Origin: a virus
Taxonomy: Duplodnaviria > Heunggongvirae > Uroviricota > Caudoviricetes
IMG/VR virus record: IMGVR_UViG_2531839446_000008
DNA: 34,394 nucleotides
Strand: one strand, 5' to 3'
A model generated the notes under the pieces. The model saw nothing but the letters and a program-made list of their open reading frames with translations, ran no database searches and was not told the origin of the DNA. This document shows, one piece after another, positions 4,577 through 10,640 of this stretch; position 1 is the stretch's first letter, and each line of letters begins with the position of its first letter. The translations under genes were made by a program, and so were the position numbers.

Positions 4577-5557
4577 CTAACGTCCTGCTTTTAACAATAA
4601 CCAGATAAACACCGGCGCACCCAACGTTGCGGTGACCACGCCAATTGGCAGCTCTGCGGCAGCTAATGCCAGGCGCGCTACAATATCGGCCAGCAGCAAT
4701 GCGCTCGCCCCTGCCAGCGCGCAGCCGGGAAGTAATACGCGATGATCGGTTAAACCACACAGCCGGAGAATATGTGGGATCACCAGACCAATAAAGCCGA
4801 TAGCACCCGCCAGCGCCACACTGACGCCAACCATCCAGCCGGTCGCTGCCACCAGCACATTGCGCCAGAACCACAGGGGTAAACCCAGTTGCCGCGCCGA
4901 GATCTCGCCAAGTGCTAACATATTCATCGGCCTGGACTGACAACAGATCCACAACAATACGGGGATCAATGCCACCATCAGCCAGCTTTGCCGCCAGTCT
5001 ACGCCGCCAAAACCGCCCATCATCCAGTACATCAGCTGACGTAAATCAACAGAGGTGGAAAAGTAGATAGCCCACGTCATTAGTGCGCTACAGATAATCC
5101 CTAATGCAACGCCAGCCAGCAATAACCGACTGGTCGAAAGATGACGACGAGCGAAACGTAAGAGTATTAAAGTGATGATAAGTGCGCCTGCAATCGCACA
5201 CAGCCCTAGCGCCCAGTTGGGGAGTTGCCCTTGCCCAAGCAATACCGCGGCGATAAGCCCCACGCCTGCGCCGTTAGAGACGCCAAGTAGTCCAGGTTCT
5301 GCCAGAGGATTTTCAAACAACGCCTGCATTACAGCGCCGGATATAGCCAGCGCCGCACCAACCAGCAATACAGCCAGCGTACGTGGCAGGCGAATTTGCC
5401 AGACGAACAGTTCGCCACGAGGAGAAAACCAGTCACCTGGCAAAATCCATAGTTCACCGGCGCAAAGGCTTAAGAGAAGCGCCAGCAGCATCAAAACTGA
5501 CAGGCATAATAACCAGCGAATATTTTGTCGCTGCTGTTGGCGGGCAAGTGTCAGCAT
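4577..5557 (-). CDS. btuC: Vitamin B12 ABC transporter permease BtuC
   Basis: 326-aa highly hydrophobic multi-pass ORF of the FecCD permease type at the head of btuCED. Confidence 0.9.
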
Positions 5558-5613: not shown

Positions 5614-5640
5614 GAAAAGAAAAAAGGCCGCAGAGCGGCC
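5614..5640 (-). terminator. Rho-independent terminator for a minus-strand transcript
   Basis: GGCCGC-aga-GCGGCC hairpin (5626-5640) preceded on the plus strand by an A-run, i.e. followed by a U-run on the minus-strand transcript; lies downstream of the 5750..6187 cargo gene. Confidence 0.5.
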
Positions 5641-5749
5641 ATAATTACATTCAAAAATCAATAAGTTACATGATTATCAATAACTTACAGACACACAAAA
5701 ACACAGCCAACCACAGCAAGTAACAGTGATGTGGTCACTTTGTGGATCA

Positions 5750-6187
5750 TCAGCCAACAAATTTAGCAACAAAATACGCGACCGCCGCCGTGAAAATGGT
5801 TGTGCACACTGGCACAATAATGCCACTCCAACGCCACTTCGTATTATCATCAACCTTGTCAAACCGCCGATTCATCTCATCCATAATCTTGTCAAAGCGT
5901 TTATCCATCGCTTCGGTAAGCTCACCCTTCAGGCTGTTAATGTCTGATTTGAGCTGCTCTTTCAGATTAGCTGTATCAGATTTAAGCTCACCTTTCAGAT
6001 TCGCAATATCGCATTCAAGCTCACCTTTCAGATGAGCAATGTCTGCTTTGAGCTCACCCTTCACCTCACCAACATCGGCTTTGGTTGAGAGGTTTGTAGT
6101 GCGTTCAGCAAGCGTCGCAAGGTCGTTTCTTGTTAGCGATAAATCACTTTCGAGTCGCTCAATTCGCCTTTCAAGTTTATCTGACAT
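5750..6187 (-). CDS. Coiled-coil protein with C-terminal transmembrane anchor (prophage cargo; function unknown)
   Basis: Start chosen at MSDKLERR, which has a strong SD (GGAGGTGGA) just upstream; the ORF could extend to 6304. Contains 11-residue LKGEL-type repeats and a hydrophobic C-terminal tail (IIVPVCTTIFTAAVAYFVAKFVG). Visibly AT-rich. Confidence 0.6.
   Translation of the reverse strand: MSDKLERRIERLESDLSLTRNDLATLAERTTNLSTKADVGEVKGELKADIAHLKGELECDIANLKGELKSDTANLKEQLKSDINSLKGELTEAMDKRFDKIMDEMNRRFDKVDDNTKWRWSGIIVPVCTTIFTAAVAYFVAKFVG
5918..6082. repeat. Five tandem 33-bp repeats inside the coiled-coil cargo gene
   Basis: Units of the form aagctcacc(t/c)ttcag...n...ttt repeat head-to-tail at 5918, 5951, 5984, 6017 and 6050, encoding the 11-aa LKGEL repeats. 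Confidence 0.8.
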
Positions 6188-6287
6188 TCCACCTCCACTA
6201 CTGCCGCCATCGCCGCCATGATAAAGCACATCACGCTCAGAATGCGACATACTACCTGCTGAATTACCGAACAGGTTTCTTGCTACA

Positions 6288-6683
6288 TTACCCATTTTCA
6301 CCATCCTGTGCTTTGTCTTTCTCCAACCACTTCAGCACCGCAGACGTACGGTAAAGGCTCAGGTAACCACAATTCAGGCAATGCAGCGTGTAATAAGTTT
6401 TGCGCATATCAGGTATGCTCTTAACATCACCCAAAAAAGTATAAGATACATAATGCTTTATGTTCTCTTTAATTAACTCACTCTGCTCCTCCAAGGGTAG
6501 ATTGTTAAAATTTTCTGGTTTCTTATTTTTATCCCAGCAAAGATCCATACTTTCAGGCACAGATAATCGAGACGATCCACATGAAGGGCAGACACTGGAA
6601 ACCTCCTTCTCAGACAAGAAACGGAAGAAGATTTCTGGCGTAATCTCCATCAGCCGCTCCTTATGTTTATTGACACGACTCAT
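6288..6683 (-). CDS. Hypothetical small protein with CxxC...CxxC zinc-ribbon-like motifs (prophage cargo)
   Basis: 131-aa ORF with CPSCG near the N-terminus and CLNCG near the C-terminus; its stop overlaps the extended ORF of the downstream coiled-coil gene. AT-rich. Confidence 0.5.
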   Translation of the reverse strand: MSRVNKHKERLMEITPEIFFRFLSEKEVSSVCPSCGSSRLSVPESMDLCWDKNKKPENFNNLPLEEQSELIKENIKHYVSYTFLGDVKSIPDMRKTYYTLHCLNCGYLSLYRTSAVLKWLEKDKAQDGENG

Positions 6684-6788
6684 CGACTTCTTATTGATTT
6701 CATCAGCTTCTTCTTTGCATTTATCTTCTATATATTTCGATAGTAAATAGTCATATAACTCTTTTTTGTAGGTTTTTTATTTCCATAG

Positions 6789-7766
6789 TTACATTCCTCC
6801 CAAGGGATTAAACCTCACCGCATCCTGCAGGTAATCCGGCGCAAGATGGGCATAAATCATCGTTGTCTGAATCTTTGCGTGCCCCAGAATTTTCTGGAGC
6901 GTCAGAATATTACCGCCGTTCATCATGAAATGACTGGCGAAGGTGTGGCGCAGCGCATGAACAGCCTGGCCGTCAGGAACATCAGGTGCGACCGTTTTGA
7001 TGACATCGCGAACCAATGGATAATCCAGCGTTGGAAACACTAGTTTCCCGCCCCGTTTTTTGATCTTTTCAAACAGATTTTCGGAGATCGGGACAGTGCG
7101 GTTTTTACTGTTCTTCGTTTTTGAAAAAGTGATTCGACAATGAAGAACACGGCGCTGCTCCAGTGCCGCTACCTCGCCCCATCGCGCCCCGGTCGACAGA
7201 AGGATTTCGACAGCCAGCCGTTCATCGGGATTTTCAGCCAGTGCATCCAGCAACTGAACACATTCAGACTTACTCAGGTATCCCATTTCGCGCTCGTTAA
7301 CCTTCATTCCTTTAAGGCCTTGAACGGGGTTATCGTTAAGAAAATGGCCGGATGAGATGAGTGCGGTAAACATCGCGCTTAACGCCCCAATCTCTCGATT
7401 TATGGTGCTGGGCTGTATCCCCTGCTCTATCCTGGACACACGTAGCTCGGTGAGCATCGTTGTATTAAGTTTATGCACGCACGGGTCATCCATTGCCTCA
7501 CTCAAGCGCAGCAATTTAAGGCGCGTGTTATGCCCTGACTTCATTAGCTGGCCGTGGTATTTCCACCACAAGTCAATAAGCACTGACAGAGGACGGCGAT
7601 CAATAGAGTTTCCTTTCCACTCATTGTTATGCTGTTGCGCCAGCACCCACCGCTCATATAAAACTGCATCCGATTTCGTTTTAAATTTTTTACGAATGCG
7701 TTTGCCTTTACGCCCCTCCGGGCGCATGTCAAGAAGATACCCTCCCGGAATTGATTTTATGCTCAT
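6789..7766 (-). CDS. int: Phage integrase (tyrosine recombinase), P2 Int-like
   Basis: C-terminal catalytic region contains HALRHTFASHF and the LGHAKIQTTMIYAHL motif with the catalytic Tyr. Start set at the internal MSIKS Met, because the longer 375-aa ORF would overlap the repressor gene. Confidence 0.85.
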   Translation of the reverse strand: MSIKSIPGGYLLDMRPEGRKGKRIRKKFKTKSDAVLYERWVLAQQHNNEWKGNSIDRRPLSVLIDLWWKYHGQLMKSGHNTRLKLLRLSEAMDDPCVHKLNTTMLTELRVSRIEQGIQPSTINREIGALSAMFTALISSGHFLNDNPVQGLKGMKVNEREMGYLSKSECVQLLDALAENPDERLAVEILLSTGARWGEVAALEQRRVLHCRITFSKTKNSKNRTVPISENLFEKIKKRGGKLVFPTLDYPLVRDVIKTVAPDVPDGQAVHALRHTFASHFMMNGGNILTLQKILGHAKIQTTMIYAHLAPDYLQDAVRFNPLGGM

Positions 7767-7815: not shown

Positions 7816-8127
7816 TTAGCCGGGCTGTGTACCAGTCTTGCGGGATTTTTGAGAAGACGATGTGTTTTCTGGCCCATCAGGGGAGAGAGAGGGACTGATC
7901 TGCCCAGCAGCCTCATTTGTTTTTCCCGTCATAAGCCATATAGTGTATTTTTCGAAATCCTTAGAATTAATTACGCGATCAACAACGCTTAAACCAACCT
8001 CTCTTTTACCGCTCTCATAATTCTTTATAGTTCCGAGATTTATCCCAGTAACATCTGCAAACTCAGCTTGAGTTAACCCTTCACTTTTCCGTATCTCTTT
8101 CAGTTTTTTTTCGTACCCACTTGACAT
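7816..8127 (-). CDS. C: P2 C-type immunity repressor (HTH)
   Basis: 103-aa ORF whose HTH (LTQAEFADVTGINLGTIKNYESG) and following YTIWLMTG motif resemble P2 repressor C as I recall it; divergent from the early operon. Confidence 0.75.
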   Translation of the reverse strand: MSSGYEKKLKEIRKSEGLTQAEFADVTGINLGTIKNYESGKREVGLSVVDRVINSKDFEKYTIWLMTGKTNEAAGQISPSLSPDGPENTSSSQKSRKTGTQPG

Positions 8128-10382: not shown

Positions 10383-10640
10383 AAAAAAACCGCTTGCCAT
10401 GCCGCAATCGGTCAGGTTACATTTCCGCTGCACCTCATAAAACGGGTGCCGGGATTCTCAACCCGATACAGAGCAAAGCGCATAACCGCGCAAGCGGTTT
10501 TTTGTGCGTACTGTATTGCCACGTCTTTTTCGCGTCAGAATTATGGCGGGGCGTACGGGGCCGACTTCGGTCGGGCCGGATTCTTTGCTCTCCGGTGTTG
10601 AGAACCCTGTACGTCTCGCCACCCCGAGATTCTCAACTCT
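10383..10640 (+). ncRNA. Highly structured intergenic region (candidate terminator/attenuator or small RNA)
   Basis: aaaaaaaccgcttgc (about 10383) pairs with gcaagcggtttttt (about 10490); ggccgac-ttcg-gtcgggcc hairpin near 10560; nested long-range complements gattctcaac/gttgagaac and gagcaaag/ctttgctc. No protein-coding ORF. Confidence 0.35.

Follow-up and report, generated by a model that had tools for sequence, protein, structure and literature searches.

The 34,394-nucleotide virus record IMGVR_UViG_2531839446_000008, referred to below as the window, carries two overlapping genes on its minus strand, here named A and B, between the host gene btuC and the integrase gene (int) of a P2-like prophage. 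Judging from the genomic comparisons, temperate phages exchange the two genes horizontally as a cassette that is complete in itself. Prophage cargo of this family recurs but is uncharacterised, and the case does not amount to proof of a new mechanism. Both genes are real: homologues were found to E = 1e-81 and 1e-112 and both products match PHROG families. A preliminary description based on the letters alone had placed the two genes where P2 itself has none. This was confirmed: both open reading frames are present, and in P2 and Wphi only about 273 non-coding bases, with no gene, lie between int and ogr. The pair and the edges of the slot that it occupies are as follows.

5750..6295, minus strand: gene B, DUF1640/CCDC90-like tail-anchored coiled-coil protein of 181 aa
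6288..6683, minus strand: gene A as readable in the window, Cys4 zinc-ribbon-like protein of 131 aa, PHROG 4293
6789..7766, minus strand: P2-type tyrosine integrase, its stop codon forming the upper edge of the cargo slot
5641..5749, no strand: conserved non-coding phage DNA from the B stop to the host junction (109 bp, AT-rich, 33% GC), presumably the attP arm and the lower edge of the slot

Polymorphism of the cargo slot

The integrase of the window shares 48.6% identity with P2 Int and occurs in 299 of 5426 complete E. coli genomes, nearly all at an identity of at least 95%. The B allele of the window was found in 39 of the 299, and 23 of these 39 also have the A type of the window. The remaining ones carry a second A type, which is sometimes missed by the Prokaryotic Genome Annotation Pipeline (PGAP), as in TUM1880 and a Salmonella assembly (L003, 8722-9135; L032, about 2102-2500). 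A strongly diverged third A-B allele is present in 86 genomes (PHROG 4293 at 2.7e-29, PHROG 9415 at 1.3e-42), and about 125 of the 299 carry one of the three alleles. In 158 genomes, O26:H11 11368 and O55:H7 CB9615 among them, the slot is filled by the commonest alternative cargo, a single unrelated gene for a protein of 131 aa (phrog_14142; locus L014, 3082-3477) with no match in Pfam or PADLOC.

All slot alleles, at least four in number, lie between the int stop codon and the conserved attP arm at 5641-5760. The segment 5641..5749 is 80-90% identical across all four cargo alleles, and the sequence above it diverges. The content of the slot thus differs between shared flanks and is absent from the type phage, as is usual for the variable cargo (morons or hotspots) of P2-like phages. 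Since the slot varies among prophages with the same integrase, A-B is variable cargo and not core. The possibility that the two are conserved core genes of this lineage is contradicted by the same counts, as more than half of the same-integrase prophages lack the pair, and its earlier designation as att-proximal accessory cargo stands. The base composition bears out the earlier remark that the pair is visibly more AT-rich than the flanks: the slot has 42.3% GC (A 41.4%, B 46.0%) compared with 49.4% in int, 55.0% in btuC and 51.5% in the prophage part of the window. In a survey of P2-like prophages (2026; PMC13586616), the int-att interval was found to be a minor defence hotspot. The prophage itself can be regarded as a defence-carrying element because it bears IetAS in its canonical P2 hotspot.

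The alleles are exchanged in a particular manner. Between the window and the E. coli loci STEC388 and TUM1880, only the region 6200-6800, which holds A and the N-terminal peptide of B, is different; the stalk and the anchor of B are at least 95% identical. Furthermore, the same types of A plus N-terminal peptide are paired with three different C-terminal types of B. This joint swapping fits the recognition of the B N-terminal peptide by A.

Coupling and mobility of the pair

The pair was compared in the window, in E. coli STEC388, TUM1880 and MS8345, in a Klebsiella P2-like element, in Salmonella phages SPN3UB and 29485 and related prophages, and in Providencia, Citrobacter, Pectobacterium, Yersinia and Mixta. 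In 12 of 12 loci, representing eight genera, A precedes B and either overlaps it by 8 or 1 nt or abuts it. In the window, the A stop and the B start overlap by 8 nt (ATGGGTAA), and it is proposed that A and B are made in fixed proportion by translational coupling. The overlap itself had been noted earlier; the 17 nt given by the longest reading frame of B had to be reduced, as B starts at 6295.

The surroundings of the pair are varied. It lies downstream of int in E. coli, Klebsiella and Salmonella, whereas in 186-like prophages of Citrobacter the order is cI-A-B-int, with the genes overlapping or closely spaced, and in Pectobacterium it is HTH-x-x-A-B-int, HTH denoting a helix-turn-helix gene. 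In the Pectobacterium prophage (locus L020, 4672-5970), the two further accessory genes between the repressor and A-B encode a protein with a Flk_N domain, Flk itself being tail-anchored, and a protein with a VasI domain; neither matched PADLOC. In siphoviruses of Salmonella and Yersinia, the pair lies as a moron within the tail region and has the orientation of the late tail genes: it is placed ahead of the tape-measure gene in SPN3UB and adjoins an O-antigen acyltransferase, a conversion gene, in Yersinia. In a Mixta/Pantoea chromosome, there is a bare A-B insertion between cdaR and yaeH (DUF3461) (locus L024, 6001-6658), and no integrase or phage genes are found within 6 kb of it. This phage-free site and the diversity of contexts indicate that the pair is not a component of the virion or of replication. 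Among the species-representative genomes, a narrow alignment returned only 2 related loci; the pair was seen in the Shiga toxin-producing E. coli (STEC) lineages O157, O145, O103 and O26 as well as in Salmonella and Klebsiella. A role in recombination directionality or integrase regulation was considered and ruled out, the pair being also found far from any integrase.

A small upstream gene overlapping a downstream one, by 8, 1 or 0 nt in all 12 loci, is the classic layout of type II toxin-antitoxin systems. The pair could accordingly be imagined as an addiction module, in which A, as the coupled antitoxin, would counteract the damage done to the membrane by the toxin B, stabilising the prophage or a chromosomal islet. 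Persistence as a standalone two-gene islet in Mixta agrees with this, as does the weak XhlA/holin likeness described below. Zinc-binding antitoxins exist, MqsA being an example. This explanation is nevertheless rather unlikely. Neither protein matches a toxin or antitoxin family, A has no DNA-binding domain for autoregulation, and a stalk of variable length with a disordered N-terminal peptide would be unexpected in a simple membrane toxin. Moreover, the window and several genomes retain B beside a frameshifted or unannotated A, and B has not obviously been lost there.

In P2, C and int are co-transcribed from Pc. The corresponding repressor gene is situated upstream of int in the window:

7816..8127, minus strand: C-type helix-turn-helix immunity repressor, annotated in relatives; heads the presumed lysogenic operon C-int-A-B

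No terminator-like site was detected on the minus strand from C (7816-8127) down to 5640. The gene order and this lack of terminators would place A-B in a lysogenic operon C-int-A-B, a position independently supported by the Citrobacter order cI-A-B-int. The pair would then be a member of the C-int operon and would probably be expressed in the lysogen. Promoter and terminator scans around A-B in SPN3UB and Mixta gave no excess over the shuffled expectation.

Gene A

The longest readable open reading frame of gene A in the window (6288..6683, minus strand) encodes 131 aa. In E. coli, Salmonella and Providencia, 16 close homologues have a length of 160-166 aa and share the N-terminus MEIKxPTxEELxxFLLxKYLEE. 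The 131-aa product is, by this comparison, a truncated reading. The missing part can be located as follows.

6684..6786, minus strand: frameshifted N-terminal extension of gene A, recognised by homologue comparison

The true start is an ATG at 6786, located 2 nt past the int stop and 9 nt past a GGAGG. Where relatives have A7 runs, the window has A6 (at about 6762-6767 and 6774-6779); these are two frameshifting 1-nt deletions within the first 25 bases of the gene. With A6 for A7 in both runs, the full-length frame is closed after 11 codons. The indels look like homopolymer under-calls.

In the window, the module could alternatively be a decaying or inert remnant in which A has lost its start and N-terminal helix, as the two deletions and the 11-codon frame now following the full-length start would suggest. 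This is highly improbable. The A family is clearly conserved at the protein level across genera, B is intact, and the indels have the appearance of under-calls just mentioned. The remaining frame (131 or 120 aa) spans the whole core of PHROG 4293 (E = 6.5e-22), and the second ATG of the gene, at 6650, is preceded by a strong AAGGAG Shine-Dalgarno sequence at a spacing of N6.

The A product contains CPSC at residues 32-35 and CLNC at residues 102-105, and all four cysteines (C32, C35, C102, C105) are invariant in 51 homologues. Further invariant positions are P43, Y98, V116 and W119, and the TPE-F-FL helix is nearly invariant. The AlphaFold model of an intact homologue, built from the 51-sequence alignment, is confident (predicted local distance difference test score 88.6). 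A long helix (8-46) at the N-terminus is followed by a short one, and a zinc-ribbon-like beta core then leads to the C-terminal helix; the CxxC pairs flank the strands 79-83 and 131-147. The two conserved CxxC knuckles on beta-hairpins are those of a Cys4 zinc ribbon, and the product is probably a small cytoplasmic zinc-binding protein. Of the earlier account of a 131-aa zinc-ribbon-like protein, the two CxxC pairs were upheld and the length was not, given the 160-166 aa of the homologues.

A profile search against 1.84 billion cluster representatives returned 198 relatives at E <= 1e-3, of which 83 at E <= 1e-10. The best 150 of the 198 are standalone proteins of 49-180 aa, and the named relatives are all from Enterobacterales. 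The product belongs to no Pfam, NCBIfam or PADLOC family; Pfam zinc-ribbon families remained below threshold (best E = 4.7e-4), and no structural relative of the AlphaFold model was found among solved structures. Sequence searches of the PDB with the A and B products gave no match.

Gene B

The longest open reading frame of gene B (5750..6304, minus strand) would encode 184 aa. The homologues begin at MGNVARN..., which corresponds to the ATG at 6295 and gives 181 aa. PGAP calls a protein of 145 aa starting at 6187 (Met37), without an overlap with A, and in most RefSeq genomes B is annotated from this internal Met (e.g. loci L001/L002). As the only start of B, that of the 145-aa form is not supported; the 36 codons upstream of Met37 are, on comparative grounds, coding. 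In all 12 divergent loci, their reading frame is uninterrupted and starts at the A stop codon or inside it, and a Gly-rich linker followed by Met is found in nearly all B proteins compared. In addition, B proteins as far apart as those of E. coli, Yersinia and Providencia share an H-G-G motif, and PHROG 9415, which B of the window matches at 7e-15, is aligned from residue 1 of the MS8345 homologue. The regions distinguished in B are as follows.

6188..6295, minus strand: N-terminal variable peptide (residues 1-26) and Gly-rich linker GGDGGSSGGG (residues 27-36)
6074..6091, minus strand: beta-layer motif LSTKAD (residues 69-74), with T71, K72 and D74 invariant in 25 homologues
5843..6073, minus strand: seven 11-residue (hendecad) repeats (residues 75-151)
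5765..5821, minus strand: C-terminal transmembrane anchor IIVPVCTTIFTAAVAYFVA (residues 159-177), from the hydropathy scan and AlphaFold helix 160-180

The preliminary description of a coiled coil with an 11-residue repeat and a C-terminal anchor therefore agrees well with these features. In the AlphaFold model, residues 1-34 are disordered and are followed by helices at 37-152 and 160-180. The reading frame of this N-terminal segment is open in the 25 closer homologues, all of which have the Gly motif and Met37. Positions a, d and h of the hendecads are hydrophobic, and the central units are encoded by 3.2 copies of a 33-bp tandem repeat (5959-6063, Tandem Repeats Finder score 124). The lengths of the homologues form two series with a step of 11 (148/159/170/181/192 and 101/112/123/134/145/156), which shows that the stalk has readily changed in length during evolution. 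Hydrophobicity is confined to the last 23 residues, with a mean Kyte-Doolittle value of 2.14 over 159-177 and 4 residues after it; no other segment exceeded 0.17 in the scan. With its hydrophilic, disordered N-terminal 34 residues, B has the characters of tail-anchored inner-membrane proteins. As the hydrophobic segment is confined to the C-terminus, B would be tail-anchored with its bulk in the cytoplasm. A spanin was ruled out, the transmembrane helix being C-terminal and a lipoprotein partner being absent.

The beta-layer motif suggests that B is trimeric. In DUF1640 membrane proteins, the motif [aliphatic]-A-T-K-x-[DE] has been described and linked to trimeric coiled coils (Hartmann et al. 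2016, PMC4786415).

The linker of B holds a GGAGG placed 4 nt ahead of the conserved internal ATG at 6187, and 10 of the 12 divergent B genes have GGAGG or GGAG at a distance of 4-7 nt before the post-linker Met. E. coli seldom uses the codon GGA for glycine. The spacing and the use of this codon suggest an internal start for a B protein without the peptide and linker; such a second isoform can be put forward as a hypothesis only.

Comparison with known families and systems

Homology and structure searches, proposed with the preliminary description, assigned the two proteins to the PHROG 4293 and 9415 families and gave no significant match to a known defence, toxin or lysis family. The A product had no match in PADLOC-DB 2.0. 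B matched LmuB, ZorA and LeoBC there (E = 1e-5 to 1e-2), but only where these form coiled coils, which counts as noise. No significant defence, toxin or exclusion family was found for A or B in Pfam and NCBIfam, where the hits were composition noise of coiled coils and zinc knuckles. A literature search retrieved no paper naming either protein and no functional report.

The closest assignment of B is to PF07798 (DUF1640), at 24.2 bits and E = 3.4e-5, the gathering cut-off of 33.5 not being reached. Some homologues of B have precomputed PF07798 hits. This sub-threshold score together with the hits in close homologues makes B a borderline member of DUF1640. Close homologues are named "DUF1640 domain-containing" or "CCDC90 family" by NCBI. 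In B, the coiled-coil stalk opens with a beta-layer motif and is followed by one transmembrane helix at the C-terminus. The DUF1640/CCDC90-like proteins (PF07798; mitochondrial MCUR1 and CCDC90B) are likewise built of an N-terminal segment, a beta-layer, a coiled-coil stalk and a C-terminal transmembrane helix, and prokaryotic members have been described (Hartmann et al. 2016, PMC4786415). Unlike them, B has a head cut to about 30 helical residues after the Gly linker and a disordered variable peptide, a stalk of hendecads in variable number, and a constant pairing with a zinc-ribbon-like gene. A DUF1640 gene of a Liberibacter phage lies after the primase, in an uninformative context.

Similar tail-anchored chromosomal core proteins of E. 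coli are ElaB, YqjD and YgaM (DUF883), which have no zinc-ribbon partner and no hendecads. Like B, they consist of a cytoplasmic helical domain and a C-terminal anchor; B did not match DUF883. By analogy with these proteins and MCUR1, B could serve as a membrane scaffold and A as an adaptor in the recruitment of a host complex, and the pair could act in lysogenic conversion through an effect on stress, growth or the envelope. The MCUR1-type head, beta-layer neck, stalk and transmembrane helix of B, its tail-anchored topology, the O-antigen acyltransferase next to the Yersinia pair and the operon position, which suggests expression in the lysogen, would all suit this explanation. It is still quite unlikely, since B is under the DUF1640 threshold and lacks a DUF883 match, no host partner is indicated, and rapid allele swapping with hypervariable N-termini suits conflict systems better.

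A second likeness is to phage lysis proteins. XhlA (B. subtilis PBSX, PF10779) is, like B, a small phage protein whose coiled coil lies in the cytoplasm and whose transmembrane helix is C-terminal; B differs from it in the long repeat stalk, the N-terminal peptide and the obligatory zinc-ribbon-like partner. B of the window gave no significant match to phrog_689 ("holin"; E = 0.0047) or PF10779 (E = 0.3). SPN3UB gp25, a distant member of the B family, matched phrog_689 "holin" and phrog_1193 "hemolysin" XhlA at 1.8e-6 and 1.9e-5. This likeness of distant members to XhlA and holin PHROGs may serve as a lead only, and the A-B pair of the window is not situated in a lysis cassette. An accessory role in the phage life cycle, either as an XhlA-like lysis helper or regulator or in tethering phage DNA or replication to the membrane, could be proposed from these weak-to-moderate similarities, the faint PF10779 flag and the co-orientation of the siphovirus pair with late tail genes. 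Its probability is small: the pair is dispensable, being absent from P2, Wphi and more than half of the same-integrase prophages, the Mixta copy exists without any phage, and the PF10779 value for the B of the window is the insignificant one given above.

Among exclusion systems, lambda encodes RexA (279 aa, cytoplasmic) and RexB (a membrane protein with four transmembrane helices) in its repressor operon. The A-B pair resembles RexA/RexB as a two-gene accessory module of a lysogenic operon with one cytoplasmic and one membrane protein, and the Citrobacter order cI-A-B-int mirrors cI-rexA-rexB. No similarity in sequence or fold was detected, however; B has a single-pass tail anchor, and A is of about 120-166 aa. 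HK97 gp15, other single-gene exclusion morons and the repressor-integrase genes of Cluster N mycobacteriophages encode small accessory membrane proteins expressed from the prophage. They share with A-B the moron or immunity-integration positions and the variability between close relatives. In contrast to them, A-B is an obligatory two-protein pair, with nearly all the mass of B in the cytoplasm, and shows no homology to these genes.

Possible function in the lysogen

An exclusion, defence or toxin function, as suggested in the preliminary description for att-proximal genes of this kind, is plausible from the context. The favoured, still tentative explanation is that the lysogen expresses A-B as a module for exclusion or abortive infection that is tethered to the membrane; the probability of this explanation is put somewhat short of an even chance. 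It is preferred on account of the mobility of the pair, the allele swapping, the phage-free Mixta copy and the membrane-plus-cytoplasm layout. A protective function as such is a conjecture. According to this explanation, the pair would be made in the lysogen from the end of the C-int operon. B would be a trimeric inner-membrane protein held by its C-terminal anchor, its hendecad stalk and beta-layer neck reaching into the cytoplasm and ending in the flexible Gly linker and the short variable peptide. A would probably dock on this N-terminal peptide or on the head and serve as the specificity or sensor part, while B, as the membrane tether or the effector, would stop DNA from entering or disturb the membrane. 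The two proteins would thus act at the cytoplasmic face of the membrane and shield the lysogen from other phages.

Several points weigh against an exclusion module. Neither A nor B is similar to defence, toxin or exclusion families of PADLOC, Pfam or NCBIfam, and no enzymatic or nucleic-acid-binding domain is recognisable in either. Variable slots also house toxin-antitoxin and lysogenic-conversion genes. The proposed expression in the lysogen is deduced from gene order, and the A of the window may be crippled by its frameshift. The co-inheritance of A and the B N-terminus could equally arise from adjacency and recombination in the conserved Gly-linker/LERRIERLE segment.

A more elaborate version is unlikely: temperate phages of enterobacteria would possess in A-B an immunity system of two components that has not been described before and that works through a bait peptide. 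Here, the trimeric tail-anchored stalk would hold a hypervariable bait peptide on its Gly tether, and the cognate zinc-ribbon partner A would read it. Swapping the cassette of A plus bait peptide would re-program the specificity, and adding or removing 11-residue stalk units would tune the reach. The internal start (GGAGG-N4-7-ATG, Met37) might yield a bait-less isoform setting the threshold, comparable to the dual starts of holins and antiholins.

If A-B does protect lysogens, this would be a small, widespread addition to the prophage defence and exclusion repertoire of Enterobacterales, with components that resemble no known defence protein, and would provide the first function for a prokaryotic DUF1640/MCUR1-type protein. 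The pair is a moderately interesting and concrete candidate for experiment, for which cassette swapping of A plus N-terminal peptide and the variation in repeat number offer concrete handles. Since automatic annotation starts B 36 codons late and sometimes leaves A uncalled or frameshifted, protein-based surveys under-count the pair.

Host junction and neighbouring elements

The host side of the window has the order selO-ydiV-nlpC-btuD-btuE-btuC and is followed by the P2-like prophage. The elements at the junction are given below.

4577-5557: btuC
5617..5640, minus strand: host ihfA terminator (GGCCGCTCTGCGGCC, then a T run), where identity to K-12 starts exactly

In K-12, btuC is directly followed by ihfA. 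The identity to the K-12 ihfA-btuC intergenic region ends immediately upstream of the ihfA terminator hairpin (window 5640-5617). As the first host-identical sequence is this terminator, the junction between prophage and host is placed at about 5641. The ihfA terminator is the sole terminator-like site 3' of B on the minus strand and likely ends the C-int-A-B transcript.

In the early region of the prophage, two matches at the Rfam gathering level were found on the plus strand, to isrK (10430-10504, 57.5 bits) and to the C4 antisense RNA (10539-10626, 78.5 bits). Together (10430-10626) they look like an antisense control element of the P1/P7 type.

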